Positions 2,344-27,864 of a stretch of DNA of 64,000 nt are shown piece by piece (position 1 is the first letter of the stretch; every line of letters starts with the position of its first letter). Under the pieces are notes generated by a model. It was not told the origin of the DNA and made no database searches. It worked only from the letters and a program-made list of their open reading frames with translations. The position numbers and the translations under genes were made by a program. Where the stretch lies: contig DATCOD010000194.1 in the NCBI GenBank assembly GCA_036564905.1, positions 7,240 to 71,239 on the forward strand. The letters run 5' to 3'. Origin of the DNA: Candidatus Limnocylindria bacterium (GTDB lineage Bacteria; Chloroflexota; Limnocylindria; P2-11E).

Positions 2344-2459
2344 ACTCGCTCCTCGTGGACACCCTCGAGCGGCCCGCGACCGTCACACAGTCGCAGCGGA
2401 CCGAGATCGAGGCGCAGCGCCAGGCGACGAGCGAGACCCGCCGCGCGACCGTGCCGGCG

Positions 2460-4670
2460 ATGGAAGCGCTCCTCTATCAGCCCATCCCGGTCCTCGACCA
2501 CGGCTTCATCCGGGTGATCGACTACATGGGCGACGACGCGGCGGTCGTGCAGGCCGCGCGAGTGTCGTACGGCGCCGGGACGAAGAAGATCCGCGAGGAC
2601 GCGGGCCTCATCAACTACCTGATGCGTCACCGGCACACCTCGCCGTTCGAGATGTGCGAGATCAAACTGCATGTGAAGCTGCCCATCTTCGTGGCCCGCC
2701 AGTGGATCCGGCACCGGACCGCGTGCCTTGCCGGTGACACGAAGCTCTGGTTCGACCTCCCAAATGGGCTCAAGCGGGGCGGTCGCGCAATCAGCTCGAC
2801 GACCATCGAGCGGTTCCACCGAGAGTGGCACGAAGGCTCGAGGCATCCGATCCCTAAGAAGAAGCCGACCCACATGGAGGATGTCGATCCGGAGCGCTGG
2901 TATTCGGTACCCGAACTCGCCAAGCTCGTGCACCGGCGTGCGGAATCGCTGAGGAATCAGATCCGGGAGGGGTCTCTCGAAGCCACCCAGCGACCGACGA
3001 AGGACCCCCACGAGCCGCAGCTCTGGATCAAGGGCTCTGCGTGGCATGACTTCGCGAACCACACCTACATAGCGAAGGTCGATCTGCAGGACGTGCTCTC
3101 GCGCCGGCTCCTTCGTCACTGCGACGAAAGCAGCGGTGAGATCGACGACACGCGCGTCCTGGACGTATGGGAGACCGGCGTTCGGCCCGTGTTCAAGGTG
3201 ACGCTCGCCAATGGGTACTCGGTCAAGATGACCAAGGATCACTTGTGCCTGACTTCGGATGGCTGGAAGACCTTGGAGCAGGCCACCGGAGTTCACATGG
3301 GCATGGGCGGCGGCGCTACATGGCGTGAGGATTCTCCGCGGTTCGCCGTGAATGGCGTACCGGCGCACCACGACCGCGAATGGCTACAAGCCCGCCGGGC
3401 CGAGGGGCTGCAAGTCCAAGCGATAGCCGACCGCGCAGGTGTCTCGTATCACACGATCAGAAAGGCGTTGCAGCGCCACGGGCTGCAGTTCACTGCGAAA
3501 GAGAAGGCGAAGTTCTCCGGGCTAGCCCAGCGCGGCCAACGGCGAACCTTCGCTCGGCATCAGCACAGTCCCGAGGGCCTCGCTCGGATCCGCGTGGCTC
3601 GTTCTGGCCGAGCTTCTAACTTCTGGAAGGGCGGAGTCACTGTCGAACGACAGCTGATCGGCGCATGGACGACAAGTCACGCCCGGGCGGTCCACGAACG
3701 GAACGGATTCAGCTGCGTCATGTGTGGCGGCAAGGGTCGATTGAATGCCCACCACGTCGATCCGGTCTGGCATAACCCTGAGCGATCGCGCGAGATCGAC
3801 AACCTGACGACCCTGTGCGGGCGTTGCCACCGGGACATCCATCGGATGAATCTGGAACTGGCGCTGCTTGAGGAGGCGCAGAGCGGAGACGTCGCGTCGT
3901 TCTGGCAGCGACACGCAACGTCCCAGCCACGGCACCCAGCGAAGCGCAAGCCCCCCGTGCGGAAGCTGGTCCGCGGTTGGTCGGCCGTTGAGCGCATCGA
4001 GTACGCAGGCGAAGAAATGACCTACGACATCGAGGTGCTCGGTCCGGATCACAACTTCGTGGCGAACGGGTTCATCGTTCACAACAGCGTGAACGAGTAC
4101 TCGGCTCGCTATTCGATCCTCGACCGAGAGTTCTACGTGCCTGAACCGGAACAGCTCGCCGTCCAGGCGACATCGAATCGGCAGGGACGCGGAGAGGTGA
4201 TCACCGGGGAGCGCGCCCAGCAGATCCTTAGCGTCCTCAGGCAGGACGCGGACAGGATGTATCGCGACTACGAGAGCCTCTTGAACGAGACCGCTTCAGG
4301 CGAGGTGCTCGTGCCGGAGGAGCAGGGGCTGGCACGCGAGCTCGCGCGAATGAACCTGTCGGTGAACTTCTACACGCAGTGGTACTGGAAGACGAATCTT
4401 CACAATCTTTTGAACTTCCTCTCGCTGCGCGCGGACGCGCATGCGCAGTACGAGATCCGCGTCTACGCGGAGGTTCTGCTGAAGGTGTTGAAGGACTGGG
4501 TCCCGCACACGTACTCCGCCTTCATGGACTACCGGATGGGCGCGTACGAGCTGTCGGCAAAGGGTCTCGCGGCCGTGCGCCGCTTGCTCCGTGGCGAACC
4601 GGTCGAGCGCGAGTCGACCGGCATGTCGCCGGGCGAGTGGCGCGAGCTCATGGAGACGCTCGAGCGCTGA
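2460..4670 (+). CDS. thyX: Flavin-dependent thymidylate synthase ThyX, interrupted by an in-frame intein (extein about 282 aa)
   Basis: N-extein 'LDHGFIRVIDYMGDD...YLMRHRHTSPFEMCEIKLHVKLPIFVARQWIRHRTA' followed, after the intein, by 'SVNEYSARYSILDREFYVPE'. This reconstitutes the ThyX signature RHR-X7-S (RHRTASVNEYS). Alternative longer start at 2355. Confidence 0.9.
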   Translation: MEALLYQPIPVLDHGFIRVIDYMGDDAAVVQAARVSYGAGTKKIREDAGLINYLMRHRHTSPFEMCEIKLHVKLPIFVARQWIRHRTACLAGDTKLWFDLPNGLKRGGRAISSTTIERFHREWHEGSRHPIPKKKPTHMEDVDPERWYSVPELAKLVHRRAESLRNQIREGSLEATQRPTKDPHEPQLWIKGSAWHDFANHTYIAKVDLQDVLSRRLLRHCDESSGEIDDTRVLDVWETGVRPVFKVTLANGYSVKMTKDHLCLTSDGWKTLEQATGVHMGMGGGATWREDSPRFAVNGVPAHHDREWLQARRAEGLQVQAIADRAGVSYHTIRKALQRHGLQFTAKEKAKFSGLAQRGQRRTFARHQHSPEGLARIRVARSGRASNFWKGGVTVERQLIGAWTTSHARAVHERNGFSCVMCGGKGRLNAHHVDPVWHNPERSREIDNLTTLCGRCHRDIHRMNLELALLEEAQSGDVASFWQRHATSQPRHPAKRKPPVRKLVRGWSAVERIEYAGEEMTYDIEVLGPDHNFVANGFIVHNSVNEYSARYSILDREFYVPEPEQLAVQATSNRQGRGEVITGERAQQILSVLRQDADRMYRDYESLLNETASGEVLVPEEQGLARELARMNLSVNFYTQWYWKTNLHNLLNFLSLRADAHAQYEIRVYAEVLLKVLKDWVPHTYSAFMDYRMGAYELSAKGLAAVRRLLRGEPVERESTGMSPGEWRELMETLER
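2724..4085 (+). mobile_element. Intein (454 aa) inside thyX carrying an HNH homing-endonuclease and an HTH domain
   Basis: Block A 'CLAGDTKLWFDL' with Cys1 at 2724-2726; block B 'KMTKDHLCLTSDGW'; C-terminal blocks 'EEMTYDIEVLGPDHNFVANGFIVHN' then +1 Ser. Asn codon at 4083-4085, Ser at 4086. Internal HNH 'CVMCGGKGRLNAHHVDPVWHNP...NLTTLCGRCHRDIH' and HTH 'LQVQAIADRAGVSYHTIRKALQRHG'. Confidence 0.85.
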
Positions 4671-8789: not shown

Positions 8790-10721
8790 ATGCCTGCGGC
8801 ATGGTCACCGACGGAACGCCACCTGGACCGCAGCCGGCTCCGCCGATTCGCGAACGCGCACGGCCTGACCAGCTACGACGCGCTGCTGTCCTGGGCGACC
8901 GACGACCTCGAGCGCTTCTGGCGTGCGGTCGACCGCGATCTCGGGCTCGTCTGGACCGCGCCCTACTCGGCCGCGCTGGACACCTCGCGGGGCATCCCCT
9001 GGACGACGTGGTGGACCGGCGGCCGGATGAACTACGTCGGAACCGCGCTGCGCTCGGATCGCGACCAGGATCGCGTGGCCGTGATCGCCGAGCGTGAGGA
9101 CGGGCGGGTCGATCGCCGGACCTACGGCGAGCTCCGCGCGGACGTGGCCCACTTCGGCGCGGGTCTGCGGGCCATCGGCGTGCGGAAGGGCGATCGCGTC
9201 GCGGTGTTCCTTCCGATGGGCATCGAGTGCGTCGTCGCCGTCCTCGCGCTCGGCGCGCTCGGCGCGATCTACACGCCGATCTTCTCGGGTTACGGCGCGG
9301 AGGCGATCGCCGGGCGGTTGCGCGACTGCGACGCGTCGGTCGTGATCTGCGCCGACGGGTTCCACCGGCGCGGCGCGATCGTGGCGATGAAGGAGACCGC
9401 CGACCTGGCGGCCGACGGCGCGCCCACGGTGAAGACGGTCGTCGTCGCCGAGCGGCTCGGTCGCGCGTATCCGAAGCGCGATCGCGACGTCACGTGGGCC
9501 GAGGTCGTGCGCCGCGGCAGCGCTCCGCTCGTCGCTTGGGAGGATACGAGCGCCGAGGACCCGTTCATGATCATCTACACCTCGGGCACCTCCGGCCGGC
9601 CGAAGGGCGCGGTCCACGTGCACGGCGGCTTCCCGGTGAAGGCCGCGCAGGACATGGCCCACTGCTTCGACGTGCAGAACGGCGACGTCGTCTTTTGGTT
9701 CACCGACATCGGCTGGATGATGGGCCCCTGGCTCATCGCCGGGGGGCTCATGCTCGGCGCGACGATCGTGCTCTACGACGGAACACCCGACTTCCCCGAT
9801 GAGTCGCGGCTGTGGTCGATGGTGGAACGACACGCGGTGACGCACCTCGGCATCTCGCCGACGGCGATCCGCGGCCTCATGCGCGCGGGCGAAGCGCCGG
9901 TCCGCAGGCACGACCGTTCGAGCCTGTTCGTGCTCGGGAGCACCGGCGAGCCCTGGAACCCCGAGCCGTGGTGGTGGTACTTCCGCACGGTCGGCGAGGC
10001 GCGCTGCCCGATCATCAACTACTCCGGCGGCACGGAGATCTCCGGCGGCATCCTCGGATGCACGACCTGGACGGACATCGAGCCCGGCTCGTTCCGCGGT
10101 CCGGTCCCGGGGATGGCCGCCGACGTCGTCGACGAGCACGGGCATCCGGTGCGGGGCGCGGTCGGCGAGCTCGTCCTGCGCGCCCCGTGGCCGGGGATGA
10201 CTCGTGGGTTCTGGAAGGATCGGGGGCGCTACCTCGAGACGTACTGGTCGCGCTTGACCGACGTATGGGTGCACGGTGACTGGGCGCGCGTCGACGACGA
10301 TGGCTTCTGGTACATCGAAGGGCGCAGCGACGACACGCTGAAGATCGCAGGGAAGCGCGTCGGCCCGGCCGAAGTCGAGTCCGCCGCGGTCGCCAACCCC
10401 GCGGTCGGCGAGGCCGCGGCCATCGGGGTGCCCGACGAGCTGAAAGGCGAGGCCATCGTCGTGTTCGCCGTGGCGAAGCGCGGCGTGATCATCGACGCCA
10501 CGCTGGAGCGGTCGGTCTCGGACACGATCGCCGAGCAGCTCGGGAAGCCGCTCCGGCCGAAGGCCGTGCGGTTCGTGGCGCAGCTCCCGAAGACGCGCAA
10601 CGGGAAGGTCCTCCGCCGGCTCATCCGCGGCGCGTACCTCGGCGTCACGGATCTCGGCGACACGTCAGCGCTCGAGGACCCAGCGGCCCTCGACGCGGTG
10701 CGCGCCGCGGCGCGAAGCTAG
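8790..10721 (+). CDS. AMP-forming acyl-CoA synthetase of the acetyl-/acetoacetyl-/propionyl-CoA synthetase family
   Basis: ACAS_N-like N-terminus (FW...W...YVGTAL). AMP-binding motif 'IIYTSGTSGRPKG'; 'YSGGTEISG'; conserved C-terminal Lys 'KTRNGKVLRR'. Confidence 0.85.
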   Translation: MPAAWSPTERHLDRSRLRRFANAHGLTSYDALLSWATDDLERFWRAVDRDLGLVWTAPYSAALDTSRGIPWTTWWTGGRMNYVGTALRSDRDQDRVAVIAEREDGRVDRRTYGELRADVAHFGAGLRAIGVRKGDRVAVFLPMGIECVVAVLALGALGAIYTPIFSGYGAEAIAGRLRDCDASVVICADGFHRRGAIVAMKETADLAADGAPTVKTVVVAERLGRAYPKRDRDVTWAEVVRRGSAPLVAWEDTSAEDPFMIIYTSGTSGRPKGAVHVHGGFPVKAAQDMAHCFDVQNGDVVFWFTDIGWMMGPWLIAGGLMLGATIVLYDGTPDFPDESRLWSMVERHAVTHLGISPTAIRGLMRAGEAPVRRHDRSSLFVLGSTGEPWNPEPWWWYFRTVGEARCPIINYSGGTEISGGILGCTTWTDIEPGSFRGPVPGMAADVVDEHGHPVRGAVGELVLRAPWPGMTRGFWKDRGRYLETYWSRLTDVWVHGDWARVDDDGFWYIEGRSDDTLKIAGKRVGPAEVESAAVANPAVGEAAAIGVPDELKGEAIVVFAVAKRGVIIDATLERSVSDTIAEQLGKPLRPKAVRFVAQLPKTRNGKVLRRLIRGAYLGVTDLGDTSALEDPAALDAVRAAARS

Positions 10722-11207: not shown

Positions 11208-11639
11208 ATGGCCATGACGACGGGCGAATACCCGTTCGCGCACCGCCAGCGCGTGCGGTTCGGCGAGACGGACCTGCAGGCGGTCGTCTACTACGCGAAC
11301 TACCTGCTCTTCGCGGAGGTCGGGCGGATCGCGTACCTGCGCGACCTCGGCATCGACTACAAGCGCGATCTGCTCGAGCACGGCGTCGACTTCACGATCG
11401 GCGAGGCGAGCGTGCGCTACCAGGCACCCCTCCGATTCGACGATGAGTACGACATCCGCGTCCGGGTGGGGGAGATCCGAAACTCATCCTGGGTCTTCGA
11501 GTACGCGTTCGACCGCGCCGACGGGCTGCGCTGCGCGGTCGGATCCACGGTGCAGGTGATCCTCGACCACGCGAGCGGCAAGGCCGCGCGCATCCCGCAG
11601 CACCTGCGCGACGTCCTCGAGCGCGCGAAGACCGCCTGA
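11208..11639 (+). CDS. Acyl-CoA thioesterase, 4HBT/YbgC-like hotdog fold
   Basis: 'RVRFGETDLQAVVYYANYLLFAEVGRIAYLRDLG' is the YbgC/4HBT signature, with Asp in the ETD motif. Confidence 0.8.
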   Translation: MAMTTGEYPFAHRQRVRFGETDLQAVVYYANYLLFAEVGRIAYLRDLGIDYKRDLLEHGVDFTIGEASVRYQAPLRFDDEYDIRVRVGEIRNSSWVFEYAFDRADGLRCAVGSTVQVILDHASGKAARIPQHLRDVLERAKTA

Positions 11640-12784
11640 TGGACCCGACCCTTCCGGAGGAGCTGCGGCTGCTGCAGCAGAGCATCCGCGCGTTCGTCGA
11701 GGAGCGGCTCGTGCCGCGGGCCGACGAGATCGAGAAGAGCGATCGCATCCCGCGCGACGTCATCGACGCGATGGCCGCGATGGGCCTCTTCGGGATCGGG
11801 TTCCGCGAGTCGGTCGGTGGCCAGGGTTTCGGGAAGCTCGGGTACTGCATCGCGGTCGAGCAGCTCGCGCGGGCGAACGCGTCGCTGTGGAACGTGATCG
11901 GTGGGTCGGCCGGGCTGTGCGGGACGGCGATCGATGTCGGCGGTCCGGACGACCTGCGCGAGCGGTATCTGCCGGATCTGCTCTCCGCCAAGCGCATCGG
12001 GGCGTACGGACTGTCCGAGCCCGGCGCGGGCAGCGACGCCGGCAGCCTGCACACGAGCGCCCGCCGCGACCGCGACACCTACGTCATCGACGGGGCCAAG
12101 ACGTTCATCACCAACGCGCCGATCGCCGACGTGTTCACGATCTTCGCGACGGTCGACCATGCGGCCGGATCGAAGGGCATCACCGCGTTCGTCGTCGAGC
12201 GCGGCACGCCGGGCCTCGAGGTCGGGCCGAACGACGACAAGATGGGCCTGCACGGATCGACGACCGCCCAGCTCTTCTTCAGCGATCTCCGTGTGCCGGC
12301 GTCGCAACGCATCGGCGCGGAAGGCGAGGGCTTCAAGATCGCGCTCCGCACGCTCGACCTCGGGCGGCTCGGCCTCGCGGCGCACGCGGTCGGCGCGGCC
12401 CAGCGGCTCCTCGAGGCGTCGGTGGCGCACGCGAAGGCGCGCGTGCAGTTCGGGAAGCCGATCGCGGTCCACCAGGCGATCCAGTGGATGCTCGCCGACG
12501 CGGCGACCGAGATCCACGCCGCTCGGCTCATGGTCCACGACGCGGCGTCGCGCGCGGACCGGGGGGAACGCGTTACCGATCGGGCGGCGATGACGAAGCT
12601 GTTCGCGACCGAGCTCCTCGGCCGGGTGGCGGATGCCGCCGTCCAGATCCACGGCGGGATGGGCTACATGCGCGAGCTGTGGATCGAGCGGGCCTATCGG
12701 GATGCGCGCATCTACCGGATCTACGAGGGGACGAGCGAGATCCAGCGGGTCGTGATCGCGGCCGGCCTGCTTGCGGATGGCTGA
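11639..12784 (+). CDS. Acyl-CoA dehydrogenase
   Basis: 'YGLSEPGAGSDAGSL', 'KTFITNA', 'QIHGGMGYMRE', 'YRDARIYRIYEGTSEIQR' are ACAD motifs. ATGA overlap with the upstream thioesterase. Confidence 0.9.
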   Translation: MDPTLPEELRLLQQSIRAFVEERLVPRADEIEKSDRIPRDVIDAMAAMGLFGIGFRESVGGQGFGKLGYCIAVEQLARANASLWNVIGGSAGLCGTAIDVGGPDDLRERYLPDLLSAKRIGAYGLSEPGAGSDAGSLHTSARRDRDTYVIDGAKTFITNAPIADVFTIFATVDHAAGSKGITAFVVERGTPGLEVGPNDDKMGLHGSTTAQLFFSDLRVPASQRIGAEGEGFKIALRTLDLGRLGLAAHAVGAAQRLLEASVAHAKARVQFGKPIAVHQAIQWMLADAATEIHAARLMVHDAASRADRGERVTDRAAMTKLFATELLGRVADAAVQIHGGMGYMRELWIERAYRDARIYRIYEGTSEIQRVVIAAGLLADG

Positions 12785-14078: not shown

Positions 14079-15251
14079 TCACGAAATGGCGTCGATGCCG
14101 GTCGCGAAACGGCTGATGATGAGCTTCTGGATCTGGCTCGTGCCCTCGTAGAGGCGGTTGACCCGAGCATCGCGCCAGTACCGCTCGACCGGGAACTCGT
14201 CCGAGAAGCCGTAGCCGCCATGGATCTGGATCGCGCCGTCGGCGGCTCGCTGCGCCGCCTCGGTCGCGTAGAGCTTCGCGATGCTCGTCTCGCGCGTGTT
14301 CGGCCGGCCCTTGTCCTTGAGGTCGCCGGCGCGCCAGACCAGGAGGCGCGCCGCCTCGGTCTCCACGACCATGTCCGCGATCAGCTCGGCGACGAGCTGA
14401 TGACCCGCGATCGGCTTTCCGAATGTCTTCCGCTGCGTCGAATACGTGACCGAGGCGTCGATGCAGGCCTGCGCCACGCCGACGGCCCCGGCCGCGACGG
14501 AGTAGCGCCCGGAGTCGAGCGCGCTCATCGCGATCTTGAAGCCGTCGCCGATCTCGCCCAGGCGGTTCGCGTCGGGCACGCGGACGTCGTCGAAGATGAG
14601 CTCCGACGAATCGCTCGAGCGCAGCCCGAGCTTCCCGTGGATGCCCTGGCTCCCGTACCGCTGCTTCTCGCGATCGAGGAGGAACGCGACGATCCCCTTG
14701 TGCCCCAGCGCCGGGTCGGTCTGCGCGAACACGAGGGCCAGCCCGCTCACGCTGCCATTGCTGATCCACATCTTCCGGCCGCGCAGGATCCAGTCAGAGC
14801 CATCGCGCTTCGCGCTCGTGCGCAGCTTCGTGGCGTCGCTGCCGACCTCGGGTTCGGTGAGGCCGAAGCAGCCGATGATCGCCCCGCTGCACAACGCCGG
14901 CAGGTACTGCCTCTTCTGCGCCTCGGTGCCCCACTTGAGGATCGTGAGCTCGACGAGCGAGATCTGGACCGACAGCGTCGTCCGGACGGACGAGTCCGCG
15001 CGGCCGATCTCCTCGGTCACGAGCGCGTGCGAGATGTAGTCGAGACCGTGACCGCCGTACGCCTCGGGGACCGGGCCGCCGAGCAGCCCGAGGGGGCCCA
15101 TCTTCTTCAGGACGTCGGCCGGGAACGTCTCGGTCCTGTCGCGCTCGCGGGCGCCGGGCGCGATCTCCCGGTCGGCGAAATCGCGCGCAAGCGCGCGGAT
15201 CGCGTCCTGTTCCGGGGAGAGGTCGTAGTCCACTGCGCCGAGTCTAGGCAA
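14079..15251 (-). CDS. Acyl-CoA dehydrogenase (glutaryl-/short-chain-like)
   Basis: 'FGLTEPEVGSDA', 'KMWISNG', 'QIHGGYGFSDEFPVERYWRDARVNRLYEGTSQIQ'. Confidence 0.9.
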   Translation of the reverse strand: MPRLGAVDYDLSPEQDAIRALARDFADREIAPGARERDRTETFPADVLKKMGPLGLLGGPVPEAYGGHGLDYISHALVTEEIGRADSSVRTTLSVQISLVELTILKWGTEAQKRQYLPALCSGAIIGCFGLTEPEVGSDATKLRTSAKRDGSDWILRGRKMWISNGSVSGLALVFAQTDPALGHKGIVAFLLDREKQRYGSQGIHGKLGLRSSDSSELIFDDVRVPDANRLGEIGDGFKIAMSALDSGRYSVAAGAVGVAQACIDASVTYSTQRKTFGKPIAGHQLVAELIADMVVETEAARLLVWRAGDLKDKGRPNTRETSIAKLYATEAAQRAADGAIQIHGGYGFSDEFPVERYWRDARVNRLYEGTSQIQKLIISRFATGIDAIS

Positions 15252-16490: not shown

Positions 16491-16922
16491 ATGGTCATCA
16501 CCGCGGCCGGACCGGCCATTCGCGATCTCCGCCCAACGGACATCGCCGCACTCGTCTCGCTCGGGGACGCGCTCGGCGCGGGCGAGCCCGCCCAGGTCTG
16601 GCGCCGGCGCCTGGGCGACCGTGCGATCGTGGCGATCGGCGCCGAGCAGGATGGACGGATCGTCGGCTACGCCGCCGGCAGCGTGCGCACCGCCTTCGGT
16701 CTCGAGACCGGCGGTTGGGTCGAGACCTTCGCCGTCGCGAATGCGTGGCGCGGCCGCGGGCTCGGCCGGACTCTCGCGAGCGAGCTCCTCGCGCGCTTCC
16801 GCGCCACCGGCGCGCAGCACGTCTACACGATCGTCCCGGTCCACGACCTCGCGCTGCTGCCGTTCTTCCGCGATCTCGGCTTCCGCGACCTGCCCGTGAC
16901 GGCGCTCGGACGGACGCTGTGA
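16491..16922 (+). CDS. GNAT family N-acetyltransferase
   Basis: 'FAVANAWRGRGLGRTLASELL' is the GNAT motif A (R/Q-x-x-G-x-G/A). GTGA overlap with the downstream gene. Confidence 0.75.
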   Translation: MVITAAGPAIRDLRPTDIAALVSLGDALGAGEPAQVWRRRLGDRAIVAIGAEQDGRIVGYAAGSVRTAFGLETGGWVETFAVANAWRGRGLGRTLASELLARFRATGAQHVYTIVPVHDLALLPFFRDLGFRDLPVTALGRTL

Positions 16923-18082
16923 CCCTGACGCTGGACACCACGTTCCCGGCCGCTCGGTACCGCGACGTCGTCGAGGACCGGGACTTCCCGACCGTTCGCG
17001 ACTACGCGCGACGGACCGGTCGGTCCGCCGCCGGCTGCTACCCGGTGTACGGGCCGGTCGAGCTCGTGCGCGCCGCGGGACTCCTGCCGGTCGGTCTTTT
17101 CGGCGGCGGGAACCGCATCGAGATCGCGCATGCGGACTCCCGTTTCCAGTCGTTCATCTGCTCGATCGTGAAGAGCACGATGGAGCTCGGCTTCCAGGAG
17201 AAGCTCGGGCCGTTCAAGGCCCTGCTCTTCGAGTCGATCTGCGATCCCGCGCGGAACCTCGCCAGCATCATGTCGCGCAACTTCGCCGACCAGAAGTCGG
17301 TGTACGTCCACCTCCCGCAGAACATGACGTCGCCGGCGGCGGTCGACTACCTCGTGTCGGAGTACCGGCGCGTCCTCGCCGAGCTCTGCCTGGTGACGGG
17401 CACGACCGTCACCGACGACGATCTCCGCGAGAACCTCCGTTCGTACAACGCCATGCGGGCCGCGCTCCGCGAGCTCTACGCGTTCCGAGCGCGCCGCCCC
17501 GAATCGCTCCTCACGGGCGAGCTCTACACGCTCACCCGGCTTGCGACGTTGATGGATCCCGACGAGGTCACGCCGATCCTCCGCGAGTCGCTGGCGGCGG
17601 CGAACGAGCGCCAGGACCGGCCGAAGGACCGCATCCGGGTCGTGCTCATCGGCGCGTTCTGCGAGCAGCCACCACTCGAGCTCGTCGAGAGCATCGAGGA
17701 GTCCGGCTGCTACATCGTCGACGATGACTTCATGCTCGGATGGCGGTTGTTCCGCCGCGACGTGCCGCTGGACGGCGATCCGCTCGTCGCGCTCGCGCGG
17801 GCCTACCTCGATGACAGCGTGCACCTGAGCACGAAGCACGACCTCCGCGCGCCGCGCGCGAAGGCGATCGTGGACTCGGTGCGGTCCATGAAGGCCGACG
17901 CCGCGATCTGCCTCATCGCGAAGTTCTGCGAGCCAGGGCTCTTCGACTACGCGCTCTATCGCAAGGCGTTCGACGAGAACGCGATCCCGCATCTCTACCT
18001 CGAGTTCGAAGAGAAGATGTGGCTCTACGAAAAGATCAGAACGGAGGTCGAGACCTTCGTGGAATCGATGCTCTTCCGATGA
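16919..18082 (+). CDS. Bcr/Hgd-like enzyme, HGD-D-type subunit 1 (homologous to benzoyl-CoA reductase BcrB/BadE and 2-hydroxyacyl-CoA dehydratase HgdB)
   Basis: 387-aa product with HGD-D family features (conserved Cys; '...FICSIVKSTMELG...ICDPARN...CLIAKFCEPG'). GTG start overlaps the GNAT stop. Confidence 0.75.
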   Translation: MTLTLDTTFPAARYRDVVEDRDFPTVRDYARRTGRSAAGCYPVYGPVELVRAAGLLPVGLFGGGNRIEIAHADSRFQSFICSIVKSTMELGFQEKLGPFKALLFESICDPARNLASIMSRNFADQKSVYVHLPQNMTSPAAVDYLVSEYRRVLAELCLVTGTTVTDDDLRENLRSYNAMRAALRELYAFRARRPESLLTGELYTLTRLATLMDPDEVTPILRESLAAANERQDRPKDRIRVVLIGAFCEQPPLELVESIEESGCYIVDDDFMLGWRLFRRDVPLDGDPLVALARAYLDDSVHLSTKHDLRAPRAKAIVDSVRSMKADAAICLIAKFCEPGLFDYALYRKAFDENAIPHLYLEFEEKMWLYEKIRTEVETFVESMLFR

Positions 18083-19368
18083 CCGCTGCGGTCGAGATCA
18101 AGTACCAGGGCGAGCTGCATCTCCTGCAGAAGGAGATCATGGCGAAGTACTACGCCGAGGCGACCGCGATCGCCGAGGGGAACGGCAAGAAGGCCGCGCA
18201 CCTCCTGATCGCGGGGAACCCGGTCGAGCTCCTGCGGGCGTTCGACGTGCTCCCGATCTACCCGGAGGTGAACGTCCTCCAGATCGCGGTCCGGAAGGGC
18301 TCCCTCCCGCTCATCCAGAAGGCCGAAGAGCTCGGTTACGCGACGGACAACTGCGCCTACGTGAAAGCCGACATCGGTCTCTACCACGCCGGCGGCGTCA
18401 CGCCGTTCGCCAAGATCCCGAAGCCGGACGTGCTCGTGTGCAACTACGTCGGCTGCAACGTCTACCTCAACTGGTTCGAGCATCTCGCCGAGCTGACCGG
18501 CGCGCCGGCGATGAACATCGACATCCCGTTCATCCGCACGCCCGACGGCGAGCCGACCGCGGACGACGTCCGGTACGTGGTGAAGCAGCTCGAGGAGCTC
18601 ATCGTCCTTCTGGAGAACGTGACCGGGAAGAGCCTCGACTGGAAGGAATTCACGAAGATCGTCGAGCGCTCGTCCGAGACCGGACGCCTCTGGGCCGAGA
18701 TCAAGGACATGACCAAGGCGCGCCCGGCACCGTACGACGCCTACTTCGACTCGGTCACGATGATGGCCCCGCTCTACACGCTCCGCGGCACCGAGGAGGG
18801 CCTCCGGTTCTTCGAGGTCGCGCATCGCGAGATGAGCCAGCGGGTGCGCGAAGGCCGCGGCCCGCTCCCGGAGGAGCGGTTCCGCATCGTCATCGAGGGG
18901 CCGCCACCGTGGCCGAAGCTCCGGGTCTTCCGCGACATGTTCAGTCGCTGGGGCGCCGTCGCCGTCGCGTCCACCTATTCGACCGTCGGCGGGCTCTGGG
19001 AGTTCGGCTTCCGGCACGACCCGCAGCACCCGCTGGAGTCCATCGCCGCTCACATGCTGTCGTACAACGTCTGCAACCGGACCTTCCTCCAGCGCTATGA
19101 GCAGATCGAGCGGTACGTGGACGAGTGGCACGCCGACGCCGTGGTCATCCACTCGGTGAAGTCCTGCCGGCTCTTCTCCGCGGGGCAAGGCGACATGCGC
19201 GAGCACTTCGTCCGAGACCGCGACGTCCCGACGCTCCTCATCGAGTCCGATCTCGAGGACCCGCGCTACTTCTCGGAGGCGCAGCTCCGCAACCGCATCG
19301 ACGCCTTCTTCGAGGCGCTCGAGCAGCGGCGGATCACCGCGGGCAAGGCGGCCGGAGGGGTGTCATGA
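18079..19368 (+). CDS. Bcr/Hgd-like enzyme, HGD-D-type subunit 2 (BcrC/BadD/HgdA-like)
   Basis: 'NCAYVKADIG...LVCNYVGCNVYLNWFEHLA...VIHSVKSCRLFSAGQ' is the HGD-D-family Cys pattern. ATGA overlap with subunit 1. Confidence 0.75.
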   Translation: MTAAVEIKYQGELHLLQKEIMAKYYAEATAIAEGNGKKAAHLLIAGNPVELLRAFDVLPIYPEVNVLQIAVRKGSLPLIQKAEELGYATDNCAYVKADIGLYHAGGVTPFAKIPKPDVLVCNYVGCNVYLNWFEHLAELTGAPAMNIDIPFIRTPDGEPTADDVRYVVKQLEELIVLLENVTGKSLDWKEFTKIVERSSETGRLWAEIKDMTKARPAPYDAYFDSVTMMAPLYTLRGTEEGLRFFEVAHREMSQRVREGRGPLPEERFRIVIEGPPPWPKLRVFRDMFSRWGAVAVASTYSTVGGLWEFGFRHDPQHPLESIAAHMLSYNVCNRTFLQRYEQIERYVDEWHADAVVIHSVKSCRLFSAGQGDMREHFVRDRDVPTLLIESDLEDPRYFSEAQLRNRIDAFFEALEQRRITAGKAAGGVS

Positions 19369-20165
19369 GATACGCGGCGGGCGTCGATGTCGGATCCACG
19401 CAGACGAAGGCGATCATCGTCGACGAGCAGCAGCACATCATCGCCCGGTCCCTCACCGACACCGGCGCGTACCTCGTGCGTGCGGCCGACCGGGCCTTCC
19501 AGGCAGCGCTCGACGAGTCCGGGCTCGCCCGGGGCGACGTCGAGCAGGTCATCGGCACCGGCTATGGCCGATTCAAGGTCGAGTTCGGTGACGCGCAGGT
19601 GACCGAGATCTCGTGCCACGCGAAGGGCGCCTGGGCGCTCATTCCGGCCACCCGCACGGTCATCGACATCGGCGGCCAGGACACGAAGGCGATCAAGGTG
19701 AGCGACCACGGCGAGGTCCTCGACTTCGCGATGAACGACAAGTGCGCCGCGGGGAGCGGCCGGTTCCTCACCAACTCCGCCGAGGCGGTCGGGCTGCAGG
19801 TCTCAGAGATGGGCGAGCGGTCGATGGGCGCAAAGCAGCCCGTGCGTCTCTCGACCGTGTGCACGATCTTCGTCGAGTCCGACATCCTCCAGTACCTCGC
19901 TCAGGGGAAGAAGATCGAGGACATCCTGGCCGGGGTCCACGGCTCGATCGCCGCGCGCACCGTCGCCCTCGTCCGGCGCGTCGGCGCCGAGTCCGAGGTG
20001 ACGTTCACCGGCGGGGTCTCGCGCAACGTCGGCATCGTGAAGGCCGTGGAAGAGAAGCTCGCCACGCACGTGAACGTGAGCCCTGACTCGCACTACACCG
20101 GCGCGCTCGGCGCGGCGATCTTCGCGATGGAGCGGGTCGTCGCCGGCCGGGAGGTGCTCGCATGA
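19365..20165 (+). CDS. BadF/BadG/BcrA/BcrD-type ATPase subunit 1 (HgdC-like activator, ASKHA fold)
   Basis: 'AGVDVGSTQTKAIIVD', 'IDIGGQDTKAI', 'NDKCAAGSGRFL', 'TGGVSRN' are the acetate/sugar kinase-like ATPase motifs of HgdC/BcrAD. ATGA overlap upstream. Confidence 0.85.
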   Translation: MRYAAGVDVGSTQTKAIIVDEQQHIIARSLTDTGAYLVRAADRAFQAALDESGLARGDVEQVIGTGYGRFKVEFGDAQVTEISCHAKGAWALIPATRTVIDIGGQDTKAIKVSDHGEVLDFAMNDKCAAGSGRFLTNSAEAVGLQVSEMGERSMGAKQPVRLSTVCTIFVESDILQYLAQGKKIEDILAGVHGSIAARTVALVRRVGAESEVTFTGGVSRNVGIVKAVEEKLATHVNVSPDSHYTGALGAAIFAMERVVAGREVLA

Positions 20166-20965
20166 CGCTGATCGCCGGCATCGACATGGGCTCCCGAAGC
20201 GCGAAATGCGTGCTCATCGATGGGGACGCGGTCGTCGGGAGCGGGCTCGCGCGGATGCGCCCCGACTTCGCGGGTCTTGCGAACGAGGTCCTCGAGCTCG
20301 CGCTCGCGAAGGCCGGACGGCAGCGGACCGATGTCGCCTACATCGCGACGACCGGACTCGGCCGCTACAACGTGCCGCACCGCGACATCCAGATCACCGA
20401 CATCACCTGCGTCGCGCGGGGTGCCGCGCACCTCTTCCCGAACACCAGATCGGTGATCGACATCGGCGCGCAGACGACGCGCGCGATGCGCGTCAAGGAG
20501 GGCGGCCATGTCGTGGAGTTCCGGTCGAACGACAAGTGCGCCGCCGGCGCCGGCGGGTTCGCGGAGCGCGCGGCGCGTTACCTCGAGGTGAAGCTCGAGG
20601 ATCTCGGCGACCTGTCGCTCCGTGCCGACGGGGCCGAGGCCTTTACCTCGGTCTGCGCCGTGTTCGCGGAGTCCGAGATCATCAACCTCGTCACCGCCGG
20701 CACGAGCATCGAGAACATCGTCCGCGGGATCCACGACTCGCTCTCCGAGAAGGCTCTCCAGCTCCTGAAACGGGTCGGCCTCGAGCCCGAGCTCACCTTC
20801 GTGGGCGGCATGGCCCGGCAGGCCGGCCAGGTGAAGTCCCTCGAGACGGCGCTCGGGGTGTCGGTGAACGTCTCGCCGGATCCCGATCTCGTCGCGGCGC
20901 TCGGCGCCGCCCTCCTCGGGCGGCAGCGGTACGAGGGTCGTGCTTCGCAGGAGGTGGCGGCATGA
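20162..20965 (+). CDS. BadF/BadG/BcrA/BcrD-type ATPase subunit 2 (HgdC-like)
   Basis: 'AGIDMGSRSAKCVLID', 'IDIGAQTTRAM', 'NDKCAAGAGGF', 'VGGMARQ'. Paralogous to the preceding ATPase. Confidence 0.85.
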   Translation: MTLIAGIDMGSRSAKCVLIDGDAVVGSGLARMRPDFAGLANEVLELALAKAGRQRTDVAYIATTGLGRYNVPHRDIQITDITCVARGAAHLFPNTRSVIDIGAQTTRAMRVKEGGHVVEFRSNDKCAAGAGGFAERAARYLEVKLEDLGDLSLRADGAEAFTSVCAVFAESEIINLVTAGTSIENIVRGIHDSLSEKALQLLKRVGLEPELTFVGGMARQAGQVKSLETALGVSVNVSPDPDLVAALGAALLGRQRYEGRASQEVAA

Positions 20966-21918
20966 ACGAGCTCCACGACATCGGGTACACGATCAAGGAC
21001 TGGGTGGCCACGGTCACCATCCGCCGGCCGAGCTCGTACAACGCCTACACGACCCGCACCCTGGGCGAGCTCGCGCGGGCGTTCCGCGCAGCGTCGGAGG
21101 ACGACTCGGTCGCCGTCATCGTCCTCACCGGCGAGGGGGAGCAGGCCTTCTGCACCGGTGGCGACGTCAAGGAATACGCCGACGTGTACACGAAGCGCCC
21201 GCACGAGTACTGGAAGTACATGCGCGCGTTCTCCGACGCGATCGAAGGGCTCACGCAGTCGGGCAAGCCGACGATCGCGCGGATCAATGGAATGGCCGTC
21301 GGCGGCGGGAACGAGCTCAACCTCGCCTGCGACCTGTCGGTCGCGGCGGACCATGCCCGCTTCCGCCAGGTCGGCGTGCAGGTCGGCTCCGTCGCCGCGG
21401 GCGGGGCGACCCAGTGGCTCGCGCTCACGATCGGCGAGAAGCGCGCGCGGCAGATGCTCATGACCTGCGAGTGGGTGGACGCGAAGACGGCGCTCGAGTG
21501 GGGCCTCGTGAACGAGGTCGTACCCCTGGCCGAGCTCGACGCGGCGGTCGCGCGGCTCGCCGGGAAGCTCGTCGACACGTTCCCCGAGTGCATGCGCTAC
21601 ACGAAGGCGCAGGCCAACTTCCTGAAGGACTTCGTCTGGTCGTCCACCGTGAGCCACGCCAAGGACTGGCTCTCCGTGCACTTCGGCTCGCTCGAGCCGT
21701 ACGAGGGGATGAGCGCGTTCGCGCAGAAGCGGCGCGCCGACCGCGTCGGTCTCCGTGAGAAGGCCCGCGACGGTGGCTCGAGCGAATACCTCTGGGGTCC
21801 GAACACCCAAGCCTGTCCCGGCTGCGGGGCCCTGGGCCTGCCGGCCGCCTTCAGCCACTGCGGCAGGTGTGGCCACGCCCTCATGCCCGTGGCCGAGCCC
21901 GTCCATGCTGGTCGCTAG
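20962..21918 (+). CDS. Enoyl-CoA hydratase/isomerase (crotonase) family protein, possibly MenB/BadI-like, with an unusual ~45-aa C-terminal Cys4 zinc-ribbon tail
   Basis: Crotonase core 'AFCTGGDVKEY...INGMAVGGGNELNLACDL...EGMSAFAQKRRAD', then 'CPGCGALGLPAAFSHCGRCGH'. RBS 'aggaggtggcgg' upstream; ATGA overlap with ATPase 2. Confidence 0.8.
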   Translation: MNELHDIGYTIKDWVATVTIRRPSSYNAYTTRTLGELARAFRAASEDDSVAVIVLTGEGEQAFCTGGDVKEYADVYTKRPHEYWKYMRAFSDAIEGLTQSGKPTIARINGMAVGGGNELNLACDLSVAADHARFRQVGVQVGSVAAGGATQWLALTIGEKRARQMLMTCEWVDAKTALEWGLVNEVVPLAELDAAVARLAGKLVDTFPECMRYTKAQANFLKDFVWSSTVSHAKDWLSVHFGSLEPYEGMSAFAQKRRADRVGLREKARDGGSSEYLWGPNTQACPGCGALGLPAAFSHCGRCGHALMPVAEPVHAGR

Positions 21919-22684
21919 CCGAAGCGCGACCCGTGACGCCGCGCCGCTCCTGGGGCGTGTCGCCCTCGTGACCGGCGGCTCGCGGGGCATCGGGCGCGCG
22001 ATCGCGCTCGACCTCGCCGCGCACGGAGCGGCGGTCGCGTTCACCTACGCGCACGATGCCGCCGCGGCCGGCGCGGTCACCGACCGCATCGCCGAGGCCG
22101 GGCGCGACGCGCTGGCCGTCCGGGCGGACGGCCGCACGGTTGCGGACGTCGAGCTCGCCATCGCCGCGACCGCTGAACGGTTCGGCGGCCTCGACATCCT
22201 CGTGAACAACGCCGGGATCACCCGCGACCGGATGGTCTGGAAGATGACCGATGACGAGTGGTCCGATGTGCTCGACGCCGACCTCAGCGCGTGCTTCCGG
22301 TACATCCGCGCCGCCGTGCCCCTGCTCCGCGAGCGAGGCGGTGGGCGGATCGTGAGCATCTCCTCGATCAACGCCCAGCGGGGGAAGCTCGGGCAGTCGA
22401 ACTACACCGCGTCGAAGGCGGGCATCATCGGGCTCTCCAAGAGCGTCGCGCGCGAGGTCGGGCAGTACGGCATCACGGTGAACGTCATCACCCCGGGCCT
22501 CATCGCGACCGATCTCGTCGCCGCCGCGCCCGACGAGGTCCGCACGCGCGCGCTCGGCGAGATCGTCCTCGGCAGGCTCGGTGCGCCCGAGGACGTGGCG
22601 GCGCTCGTCACGTTCCTCGCGACCGATCGCGCGAAGCACATCACCGGCGCGGTCATCCCGGTCGACGGTGGCCAATACCTCTAG
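21905..22684 (+). CDS. SDR-family oxidoreductase, FabG/BadH-like 3-oxoacyl or 2-hydroxyacyl-CoA dehydrogenase
   Basis: 'ALVTGGSRGIGRAIA', 'NNAGI', 'SSINAQRGKLGQSNYTASKAG' contain the TGxxxGxG and YxxxK motifs. Start may instead be a downstream GTG. Confidence 0.85.
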   Translation: MLVASRSATRDAAPLLGRVALVTGGSRGIGRAIALDLAAHGAAVAFTYAHDAAAAGAVTDRIAEAGRDALAVRADGRTVADVELAIAATAERFGGLDILVNNAGITRDRMVWKMTDDEWSDVLDADLSACFRYIRAAVPLLRERGGGRIVSISSINAQRGKLGQSNYTASKAGIIGLSKSVAREVGQYGITVNVITPGLIATDLVAAAPDEVRTRALGEIVLGRLGAPEDVAALVTFLATDRAKHITGAVIPVDGGQYL

Positions 22685-22693
22685 GGGGACGGC

Positions 22694-23128
22694 ATGCGGA
22701 TCATCGATCGCTTCTCACGCGAGCACGAGGCCTTCGTCGGAGCGCTCGACGCGCTCCGGATCGCCGTGGCGTCAGGCGGCGACGTTGGTCTCGCGATCGC
22801 CGCGATCCGGACGCTCGCCGAGCCGCTGCTGCGGCACGCCGCGAACGAGGAGGTCCTGCTCTTCCCGGACCTCGTGGAGAAGCTCGGAGGCGAGGACGGC
22901 GGCCCGGTGGGGGTCCTCCGGCAGGAGCACACGATCATCCACGGTCAGGTCGACACGCTGCGCGGGACCCCGACGCGGGCCGACTTCGATCGGGTGTTCA
23001 AGGCGTTCGACGCGCTGCTCCGAGAGCACATCGAGAAGGAAGAGGAGGTGCTCTTCCCGCTGTCGGCGCGGCTGCTCGGGGACGCCCGCCTCGCCGAGAT
23101 GGACGAGGAGATCGCCGCGGGGGTCTAG
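22694..23128 (+). CDS. Hemerythrin-like (HHE cation-binding) domain protein
   Basis: 'REHEAF...LLRHAANEEVLLFPDL...LRQEHTIIH...LLREHIEKEEEVLFP' has the repeated H/E-x-x-x-E spacing typical of hemerythrin HHE domains. Confidence 0.55.
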   Translation: MRIIDRFSREHEAFVGALDALRIAVASGGDVGLAIAAIRTLAEPLLRHAANEEVLLFPDLVEKLGGEDGGPVGVLRQEHTIIHGQVDTLRGTPTRADFDRVFKAFDALLREHIEKEEEVLFPLSARLLGDARLAEMDEEIAAGV

Positions 23129-24079: not shown

Positions 24080-25102
24080 ATGCGTGGCGCGGTGTTCACC
24101 GGCGGCGGCAAGCCGCTCGAGCTGCGCGTCGTTCCCCGGCCGAACGCCGGACCGGGAGAGGTCCTCGTCCGGGTGGTCGCCTGCGGGCTCTGCCACAGCG
24201 ACCTCCATTACCTCGACCACGGCACGCCGACGTTCAAGGCGCCGCCGCTCATCCTGGGCCACGAGATCTCAGGCACGGTGGTGGGCGTCGGCTCGGGAGT
24301 GAGCCCGGAGCGCACCGGTGAGGGCGTCGTCCTGTCCTCGATCTCGACCTGCGGCACGTGTCCCGCCTGCCGGTCCGGACGGGAGAACCAGTGCGCGGAG
24401 CAGCGGATGATCGGCAACTCGGTCGACGGCGGCCTCTCCGAGTACGTCGCCTGGCCGGCCCGCGACACGTTCCAGATCCCTCCTGAGGTGCCCCTCGAGG
24501 ACGCCTGCATCGTCGCCGACGCGCTCACGACCGCGTTCCACGCGGTCGTCCGCCGCGGCCGCGTCTCGTCCGGCGAGACGGTCGCGGTCTTCGGCTGTGG
24601 CGGCGTCGGACTCTCGGCCGTCCAGGTGGCCGTCCAGGCGGGCGCCCGCGTCCTCGCGATCGACATCGACCCGAAGAAGCTCGCGCTCGCGCGGGCGTTC
24701 GGCGCCGAGCTCACGTTCGACGCGAAGGATCCGGACCTCGTCAAGGCGTTGAAGCGCGCGACGTCCGGTGGACCCGACGTCGCCATCGAAGCCATCGGCA
24801 AGCCGGACGTGCAGGAGCAGGCCCTCTCGGCGCTGCGCACCGGCGGCCGGCTCGTGCTCCTGGGCTTCGCCGCGAAACCGATGTCCGTGCAGGGCGGCCG
24901 GGTGACGTTCCGGGAGCTCGAGATCATCGGCACGCTCGGCTGCCGCAACGTGGACTTCCCCCTCGTCATCGACCTCGTCCGGCGCGGCAAGCTCTTGATC
25001 ACGCCGCTCGTCTCACATCGCCATCGCCTGGAGGAGGTGAATGCGGGCTTCGACCTGTTGCGCTCGGGCGCCGGTATCCGTCACATCGTCGTGATGGAGT
25101 AG
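24080..25102 (+). CDS. Zinc-dependent alcohol dehydrogenase (MDR family)
   Basis: 'ACGLCHSDLH' and 'GHEISGTVVGVG' are the catalytic Zn site; 'CGTCPACRSGRENQC' is the structural Zn site; 'VFGCGGVGLSAV' is the NAD fold. Confidence 0.85.
   Translation: MRGAVFTGGGKPLELRVVPRPNAGPGEVLVRVVACGLCHSDLHYLDHGTPTFKAPPLILGHEISGTVVGVGSGVSPERTGEGVVLSSISTCGTCPACRSGRENQCAEQRMIGNSVDGGLSEYVAWPARDTFQIPPEVPLEDACIVADALTTAFHAVVRRGRVSSGETVAVFGCGGVGLSAVQVAVQAGARVLAIDIDPKKLALARAFGAELTFDAKDPDLVKALKRATSGGPDVAIEAIGKPDVQEQALSALRTGGRLVLLGFAAKPMSVQGGRVTFRELEIIGTLGCRNVDFPLVIDLVRRGKLLITPLVSHRHRLEEVNAGFDLLRSGAGIRHIVVME

Positions 25103-26685: not shown

Positions 26686-27860
<1,175 letters not shown>

Positions 27861-27864
<4 letters not shown>

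Follow-up and report, generated by a model that had tools for sequence, protein, structure and literature searches.

The 64,000-nucleotide (nt) stretch of Candidatus Limnocylindria bacterium DNA that we analysed (contig DATCOD010000194.1; the whole stretch is called the window in the following) encodes a crotonase-superfamily enzyme that ends in a predicted Cys4 zinc ribbon. We confirmed that the tail bearing this ribbon is real and under selection, and not a product of chance or an artefact. The body of the enzyme appears, from its motifs, to resemble most closely Oah/BamA, the hydrolase that opens the ring in anaerobic benzoate degradation. Our favoured account is an Oah-like ring-opening enzyme with a structural metal-binding ribbon, to which we assign a probability of roughly 55%. 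The enzyme type and the ribbon fold as such are known; new are the fixed combination of the two, its breadth across Bacteria and Archaea and the failure of the Oah model to capture it. The gene and its parts are as follows (aa, amino acids).

20962..21918 (+): zinc-ribbon-tailed Oah-like crotonase gene, 318 aa plus stop
20995..21738 (+): crotonase (ECH_1) core, aa 12-259; Pfam ECH_1 and the Oah-type motifs FCTGGDVKEYA, GGGNE (E118) and GSVAAGGATQW
21742..21801 (+): Oah-type C-terminal arm, aa 261-280; basic helix 261-269 and conserved GGSSEYLWGP, aligning with Oah C-termini
21808..21882 (+): Cys4 zinc-ribbon mini-domain, aa 283-307; C285, C288, C300 and C303, with CPGC-N11-CGRC at residues 285-303
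21883..21915 (+): variable C-terminal end, probably disordered, aa 308-318; length and sequence differ among homologues, low predicted local distance difference test (pLDDT) score

A conserved Cys4 tail at the end of a crotonase

The gene has an AGGAGG Shine-Dalgarno sequence 8 nt 5′ of its start codon, and its first 4 nt coincide with the end of the BcrD-like gene before it. Pfam ECH_1 is matched with 182.2 bits (gathering cut-off 27) between aa 12 and 259, covering profile positions 3-246 of 251, and the AlphaFold2 (AF2) model superposes on the crotonases 3pea and 4lk5 at 2.0-2.5 Å. The segments F63-C-T-G66-G67 and G114-G115-G116, which from general knowledge of crotonases we take to be the two oxyanion-hole glycine segments, vary little or not at all among 58 aligned homologues (59-92% identity). 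All alignments with crotonases in the PDB end around aa 260, at ‘...EGMSAFAQKRRAD’, and leave 58 residues: RVGLREKARDGGSSEYLWGPNTQA-CPGC-GALGLPAAFSH-CGRC-GHALMPVAEPVHAGR. An initial annotation, made from the sequence alone, had described the region 21760-21918 (aa 267-318 plus the stop codon) as a tail beyond the usual crotonase fold, with a CxxC-N11-CxxC motif, and had noted that crotonases normally lack metal-binding tails. This description proved accurate: the motif reads C285-P-G-C288, 11 residues, C300-G-R-C303, and no solved crotonase carries such a tail.

A homologue search in 5.8 billion proteins gave matches 310-352 aa long and 60-92% identical, and the ribbon is present at the C-terminus of 119 of the 120 closest database homologues. 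The four cysteines are invariant in the 58-homologue alignment, as are R265, G279, P294 and G301, and W278 and P280 are conserved to at least 90%. Basic residues ahead of the ribbon are R257, R261, R265, K267 and R269. At least 503 genomes were found to encode a relative when one genome per GTDB species was scanned; the 86 loci referred to below are those fetched for comparison of context and tail. The ribbon occurs in 84 of them, with the 11-residue spacer in 83. One of the two loci without it ends at a contig edge (L083), and in the other, from an Anaerolineae metagenome-assembled genome (L042), the gene is broken by an in-frame stop near residue 120. The sole exception among the 120 homologues (P0091) has a C-terminus scrambled after ‘RERAAS’ in a frameshift-like manner. 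L042 and P0091 are the only apparently broken copies, and they are probably assembly errors or pseudogenes. The invariant ribbon provides a simple sequence signature of the clade, WGP-x4-CxxCG-x10-CGxCG.

An artefact could arise in two ways: by read-through after a frameshift or a lost stop, or if the tail belonged to the overlapping frame of the downstream gene, which encodes a short-chain dehydrogenase/reductase (SDR):

21905..22684 (+): FabG-like SDR, 259 aa; Pfam adh_short_C2, 200.7 bits; overlaps the last 14 nt of the crotonase gene

An open reading frame (ORF) initiated at GTG does span 21755-22684 in the SDR frame, and high GC content breeds long spurious ORFs. However, the tail is kept in hundreds of independent assemblies from many phyla and with differing downstream genes. 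A stop or frameshift after the crotonase domain, which the initial annotation had named as the mark of an artefact in orthologues, is not the pattern we found, as the counts given above demonstrate. Read in the crotonase frame, the tail has a proportion of nonsynonymous differences (pN) far below that of synonymous differences (pS), with 0.109 and 0.718, respectively, between the window and locus L007; its GC content at third codon positions is likewise highest in this frame (0.81 versus 0.70 in the SDR frame). With conservation, pN/pS and codon-position GC all against it, the artefact reading is refuted, and we see next to no probability left for it. As to the SDR itself, the automatic ORF list puts its start at GTG 21755, within the tail. 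This start is disfavoured because homology to the SDR of L007 begins at ATG 21905, because the conserved Rossmann core begins 5-118 nt past the crotonase stop in 29 loci with a downstream SDR, and because the downstream gene elsewhere encodes a DUF2269 protein, a hemerythrin or a zinc-dependent alcohol dehydrogenase (Zn-ADH) instead. ATG 21905 is, from these sequence comparisons, most likely the true start. The suggestion that the SDR gene begins inside the tail therefore holds for the last 14 nt only, and the further concern that its start would affect the interpretation of the tail does not.

The hosts among the matches listed include the Chloroflexota lineages Limnocylindria, Ktedonobacterales and Anaerolineae, further Bacteria (Acidobacteriota, Gemmatimonadota, Dormibacterota, Rokubacteria, Bacillota and Actinomycetes) and Archaea (Thermoplasmata and several Asgard lineages). 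Archaeal loci are L005, L019 and L045 (Thermoplasmata), L065, L069, L082 and L086 (Promethearchaeota) and L080 (Atabeyarchaeia). Among archaeal and bacterial members, protein identity to the window protein amounts to 56-66%, and since this is unusually high across domains it suggests that the whole cluster was transferred horizontally between Bacteria and Archaea. Two loci, L033 (Peptococcaceae CEB3) and L081 (Elusimicrobia), hold two ribbon-crotonase copies each. One host is cultured, Acididesulfobacillus acetoxydans INE (L027, Bacillota), which makes experiments feasible.

The ribbon was found in 17 of the best 150 representatives of 50%-identity clusters, at identities as low as 38% and after arms of variable length; it thus predates the core clade and extends beyond it. 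The initial annotation had also proposed to look for a separate small ORF at this position in orthologous operons. We saw no such ribbon ORF at the 86 loci, where the fusion is universal, and none is called beside the one tail-less relative that we examined (P0130). Databases list members of the clade simply as ‘enoyl-CoA hydratase’ or ‘naphthoate synthase’, and most are annotated with ECH_1/ECH_2 alone. None of our literature searches turned up a crotonase, an Oah or an enoyl-CoA hydratase described as having a zinc ribbon at its C-terminus.

Relationship of the enzyme to Oah

The sequence places the window enzyme in the MenB/BadI/Oah branch of the crotonase superfamily. MenB and BadI provide the closest solved structures by sequence (2uzf, E 1.8e-45) and by fold (Foldseek E 8e-24), and they belong to the same crotonase branch, with C-C bond chemistry on cyclic beta-oxoacyl-coenzyme A (CoA) substrates. 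The SDR and the second crotonase near the window type also recall BadH and BadK. Neither identity is borne out, however: the MenB models TIGR01929 and NF005637 score 174.4 and 182.8 bits against cut-offs of 342.7 and 380, and the BadI model TIGR03210 scores 168.7 against 467.6 bits. MenB has GSFDAGYGS with its catalytic Asp, and GGGNV, whereas the window protein reads GSVAAGG without the Asp and has Glu118 where MenB has Val. MenB structures stop about 10 residues past ‘KR.PD’ and have no ribbon.

The best NCBIfam match is the Oah model TIGR03200, with 197.1 bits in two stretches, well short of its cut-off of 464.45. As a positive control, the Oah representative P0152 passes with 630.3 bits; P0202 lies near the threshold. 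The window protein is 40% identical to P0152 over aa 16-204, and in alignments with P0152 and P0202 it shows the Oah signatures FCTGGxxKEYA, GGGxE, GS..GGAT and LR..A.G...WGP. Where Oah has FCTGGNTKEYA, GGGQE and GSAPIGGAT, the window protein has FCTGGDVKEYA, GGGNE (with Glu118) and GSVAAGGAT. Its motifs thus appear to side with Oah. It also shares its gene neighbours with Oah: a reductase resembling benzoyl-CoA reductase (BCR), a Zn-ADH (Had-like) and a second crotonase (Dch-like).

The likeness extends into the tail. The arm of P0152 is ‘DFVLLRQKLAAGQS-WVGP’ (LRQKLAAGQS-WVGP) and that of P0202 ‘DFLALHQAIARGEV-YGP’, and both proteins end about 10 residues further on. As Oah enzymes have the same arm, it was inherited from an Oah-like ancestor. 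The tail had been taken as a whole for an addition to the crotonase fold; this is correct for the ribbon, which is new, but not for the first ~20 residues (helix 261-269 and GGSSEYLWGP), which correspond by homology to the C-terminal residues of bona fide Oah enzymes. None of the Oah representatives P0152, P0172 and P0202 has a Cys4 ribbon. Conversely, Oah carries a ~50-aa insertion after the ‘VVP’ strand (window aa 188) and an N-terminal extension, and the window protein has neither. The ribbon-bearing proteins P0121 and P0122 have a ~30-aa insertion at exactly the site of the Oah-specific one, so that the Oah and the ribbon groups grade into each other. They belong to a subset of ribbon-bearing crotonases with this ~30-aa insertion, which also comprises loci with products of 338-353 aa, for example L048, L049, L059, L072 and L084; its members seem to be intermediate in type between canonical Oah and the window protein. 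We had considered the ribbon as a substitute for the Oah-specific insertion; this idea is weakened by P0121 and P0122, which carry both the shorter insertion and the ribbon.

The bamA/oah gene serves as a functional marker of the anaerobic degradation of aromatic compounds (PMC3794298). The clade described here is Oah-like in motifs and context, yet it scores below half of the curated Oah threshold and is found in at least 503 species from soil, groundwater and sediment lineages. Much of the ring-cleavage potential may therefore escape marker surveys that use the canonical model.

Fold and possible roles of the ribbon

The assignment of the tail as a Cys4 zinc-ribbon-type module is supported by Pfam profile matches across the family: at E<=0.01, DZR is matched by 62 of 67 tails, DUF7577 by 41, Zn_Ribbon_1 by 40 and Zn_ribbon_NUD by 28. 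The tail of the window protein itself stays sub-threshold with DZR_2 (15.8 bits, E 0.012, cut-off 27) and DZR (15.7 bits, E 0.017, cut-off 27.3), and the homologue P0055 reaches the gathering score of DUF7577 (28.7 versus 28 bits). The family consensus is CPxCGAxG(L/I)PxxFxFCGxCGxxL. Its CPxCG...FCxxCGxxL pattern is common to the generic ribbons DZR (PF12773), Zn_Ribbon_1 (PF13240) and DUF7577 (PF24463), from which the window tail differs in scoring below their cut-offs. To our knowledge, none of these three Pfam families has a defined function.

The full-length AF2 prediction (58 sequences) has a mean pLDDT of 92.8 and a predicted template modelling score (pTM) of 0.88. Within the tail it shows helix 261-269 and strands 281-284 and 291-294, with two beta hairpins; the pLDDT is 87-95 up to aa 310 and 56 over the last eight residues. 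The ribbon has 88-95 and the arm 87-91 in this model, whereas modelling of the tail alone gives 86-88 for the ribbon and 59-75 for the arm. From this contrast we infer that the ribbon would fold autonomously, whereas the arm that bears it would depend on the crotonase body for its position. The suggestion that the tail might be a fused mini-protein is thus fair for aa 283-307. There is no low-complexity linker ahead of the ribbon, and the variable segment lies C-terminal to it. Foldseek searches with the full model gave alignments of up to 276 columns, in which no solved crotonase covers the tail; with the tail-only model nothing was found below E=1. The closest look-alikes of the tail-only model, none of them significant, are generic Cys4 ribbons, found in ribosomal proteins, ArnA, RadD, NZF domains and a DUF35 protein (3irb). 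Searching the PDB with the tail sequence profile returned only ribosomal protein L32 (E 0.01) and rubrerythrin (E 0.11).

According to the account we favour, the enzyme would hydrate and hydrolytically cleave an alicyclic beta-oxoacyl-CoA produced by the neighbouring enzymes. The 25-residue ribbon (CPxCG-N-FCGxCG), which is fused 3-4 residues past the ‘WGP’ arm and would fold autonomously as a knuckle domain, would bind one metal ion, assumed to be zinc, through its four cysteines. It would serve as a metal-stabilised cap that the conserved arm keeps near the enzyme body, where it could fix the arm or a lid and form part of the subunit interface of the crotonase oligomer; it would have no catalytic part and would not hang on a floppy tether. 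Stabilisation of the arm, lid or homo-oligomer is favoured because there is no flexible linker, because the variable segment follows the ribbon and because the position of the arm is core-dependent in the models; it is our leading, if tentative, proposal for the role of the ribbon. A role outside the chemistry is indicated since canonical Oah works without a ribbon. This also poses a puzzle: the hydrolase works without metal in Thauera and Geobacter, yet the Cys4 site is kept everywhere else.

Several observations weigh against this account. The TIGR03200 score lies below half of its cut-off (197 versus 464 bits), so that the substrate could differ. Bona fide Oah enzymes function without the ribbon, and the tight adjacency to BCR-like genes would suit docking equally well. 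Mutual information between columns (average product correction, 208 sequences, effective number of sequences ~69) was too noisy to place the tail, and its top pairs look phylogenetic; a hint linking Y247 with L277 and G292 was not used as evidence.

Docking, which the initial annotation had suggested for the Fe-S enzyme encoded upstream, is the main rival to a structural cap. The ribbon could be a handle that binds the BcrCBAD-like reductase, the dehydrogenase or the second crotonase in a complex that passes on labile alicyclic CoA esters. BCR-like genes lie within 10 kb in 28 of the 31 loci that are flanked on either side by at least 8 kb of sequence, and the genes of the window operon are translationally coupled by 4-nt overlaps. 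The nearest structural look-alikes, although not significant, are Cys4 ribbons at protein or RNA interfaces, among them 3irb and ArnA, and zf-ChsH2, a DUF35-type ribbon, is weakly matched by 8 of the 67 tails. DUF35 proteins scaffold thiolase/HMG-CoA synthase complexes; their ribbon and OB-fold scaffolds are likewise small Cys4 ribbons tied to CoA-thioester metabolism. They differ, however, in being separate scaffold proteins with an OB-fold, whereas the window ribbon is fused to the enzyme and has none, and the matches are non-significant. Moreover, 3 of the 31 well-flanked loci have no BCR-like genes, none is found on the contigs of the distant ribbon-crotonases P0127 and P0135, though both contigs are short, canonical BCR/Oah systems need no ribbon, and in the models the ribbon does not appear flexibly tethered. 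We regard docking as possible but doubtful. Still less probable is a more far-reaching version, in which the ribbon plugs the hydrolase into the BcrCBAD-like reductase or the dehydrogenase and hydratase partners, the dearomatising complex channels unstable dienoyl- and oxo-enoyl-CoA esters, and the clade represents a second, cross-domain, horizontally spread type of anaerobic ring-cleavage enzyme that the present Oah/bamA models and marker surveys overlook. Some role other than those considered here would be similarly unlikely.

The ribbon might instead act as a switch that responds to redox state or oxygen, or hold an Fe(Cys)4 centre like that of rubredoxin: oxidation would free the zinc or iron, unlatch the C-terminal arm and so tune an oxygen-sensitive pathway. 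Both knuckles are of the CxxCG type, as in rubredoxins, the tail profile bears a weak likeness to the Fe(Cys)4 domain of rubrerythrin (CxxC-N12-CxxC), hemerythrin is a recurrent member of the cluster and many hosts belong to soil lineages that are likely oxygen-exposed. But the rubrerythrin match is non-significant and the best PDB match is the zinc ribbon of L32, a hydrolase needs no electrons, and hemerythrin was detected by tblastn in only 5 of the 86 loci. We consider such a switch purely speculative and improbable.

Nucleic-acid binding for autoregulation has a precedent in AccD, the acetyl-CoA carboxylase carboxyltransferase beta subunit, in which a crotonase fold is combined with a Cys4 ribbon and binding of mRNA or DNA was reported (PMC2831308). 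It is the only precedent for a crotonase fold with a ribbon that our literature searches returned. The AccD ribbon, however, sits at the opposite, N-terminal end of a protein from another branch of the superfamily, and we detected no sequence relationship to the tail. A basic helix does lie ahead of the ribbon, but it is shared with the ribbon-less Oah enzymes and, as we assume from general knowledge of crotonases, more likely contacts the phosphates of CoA. The cluster also has its own response regulator. By analogy with AccD such a function could be imagined, and we rate it the most improbable of the roles discussed.

Gene neighbourhood

The crotonase gene is the sixth of an operon with the order GNAT, BcrC-like, BcrB-like, BcrA-like, BcrD-like, ribbon-crotonase, SDR, with further genes around it:

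16491..16922 (+): GNAT acetyltransferase (Pfam), first gene of the operon; also in clusters of Chloroflexota, Ktedonobacterales and Thermoplasmata
16919..18082 (+): BcrC-like HGD-D subunit, ~387 aa from GTG 16919; Pfam HGD-D, 247.9 bits
18079..19368 (+): BcrB-like HGD-D subunit, ~429 aa from ATG 18079; Pfam HGD-D, TIGR02260 below cut-off
19365..20165 (+): BcrA-like ATPase (BcrAD_BadFG)
20162..20965 (+): BcrD-like ATPase (BcrAD_BadFG)
22694..23128 (+): hemerythrin-domain protein (Pfam); also in L001 and L005
23125..23895 (-): second, ordinary crotonase, ~256 aa, a candidate dienoyl-CoA hydratase (Dch-like); ECH_1, TIGR03189 131 bits versus cut-off 292
24080..25102 (+): protein of the Zn-ADH family, 340 aa, candidate Had-like; Pfam ADH_N and ADH_zinc_N
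8790-10721, 11639-12784, 14079-15251 (-), 26686-27864 (-): acetyl-CoA-synthetase-like AMP-binding enzyme, two acyl-CoA dehydrogenases and thiolase, flanking the cluster

The initial annotation had spoken of an Fe-S enzyme encoded upstream, and two HGD-D and two BcrAD genes are indeed located there. The start of the BcrC-like gene was set from homologue lengths of 382-388 aa. As the subunits miss the BCR equivalog cut-offs (311 versus 487 bits for BcrB, 199 versus 578 for BcrA and 168 versus 313 for BcrD), we name these genes only ‘BCR-like’; the two BcrAD-like genes pass the general activase domain model TIGR00241 (218 and 251 versus 125 bits). The flanking AMP-binding acyl-CoA synthetase, acyl-CoA dehydrogenases and thiolase would suit the beta-oxidation of a dicarboxyl-CoA formed by ring opening. 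A PAS response regulator is also encoded nearby.

The same gene module recurs across phyla. Neighbours were counted by tblastn across the 86 loci:

BcrA-like: 59/86 loci
BcrB-like: 59/86 loci
second crotonase: 52/86 loci
Zn-ADH: 46/86 loci
SDR, directly downstream: 45/86 loci

Comparable clusters of Asgard archaea carry a published annotation as genes of the benzoyl-CoA pathway (PMC8163825). At locus L003 the order is ribbon-crotonase, Zn-ADH, crotonase, two HGD-D genes and two BcrAD genes. This order resembles the oah-had-dch-bcrCBAD layout of Thauera. The distant ribbon-crotonase P0127 lies beside a Zn-ADH and a crotonase; its context (L089/L090) comprises a CoA ligase, the ribbon-crotonase, Zn-ADH, a crotonase, a metallo-beta-lactamase-fold protein and an SDR, an accessory set unlike that of the window. 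P0135, also distant, stands beside a crotonase, a BKACE enzyme, a CoA-transferase and a ferredoxin.

GNAT, hemerythrin and PAS response regulator genes accompany the cluster in Chloroflexota, Ktedonobacterales and Thermoplasmata (L001, L003 and L005), alongside a pathway that is supposedly oxygen-sensitive. Two extra tandem pairs of HGD-D-like and BcrAD-like genes (B A B A) follow downstream of the ribbon-crotonase, SDR and crotonase in L052, L053, L056, L058, L064, L066, L068, L076 and L078, which belong to Gemmatimonadaceae and relatives; these pairs may encode additional dehydratase-like or reductase-like enzymes. Elsewhere in the window, a 771-aa ORF at 2355-4670 (+) matches ThyX (Pfam Thy1) in two stretches and also contains an intein splicing domain and an HNH endonuclease; it appears to be a flavin-dependent thymidylate synthase interrupted by an intein.

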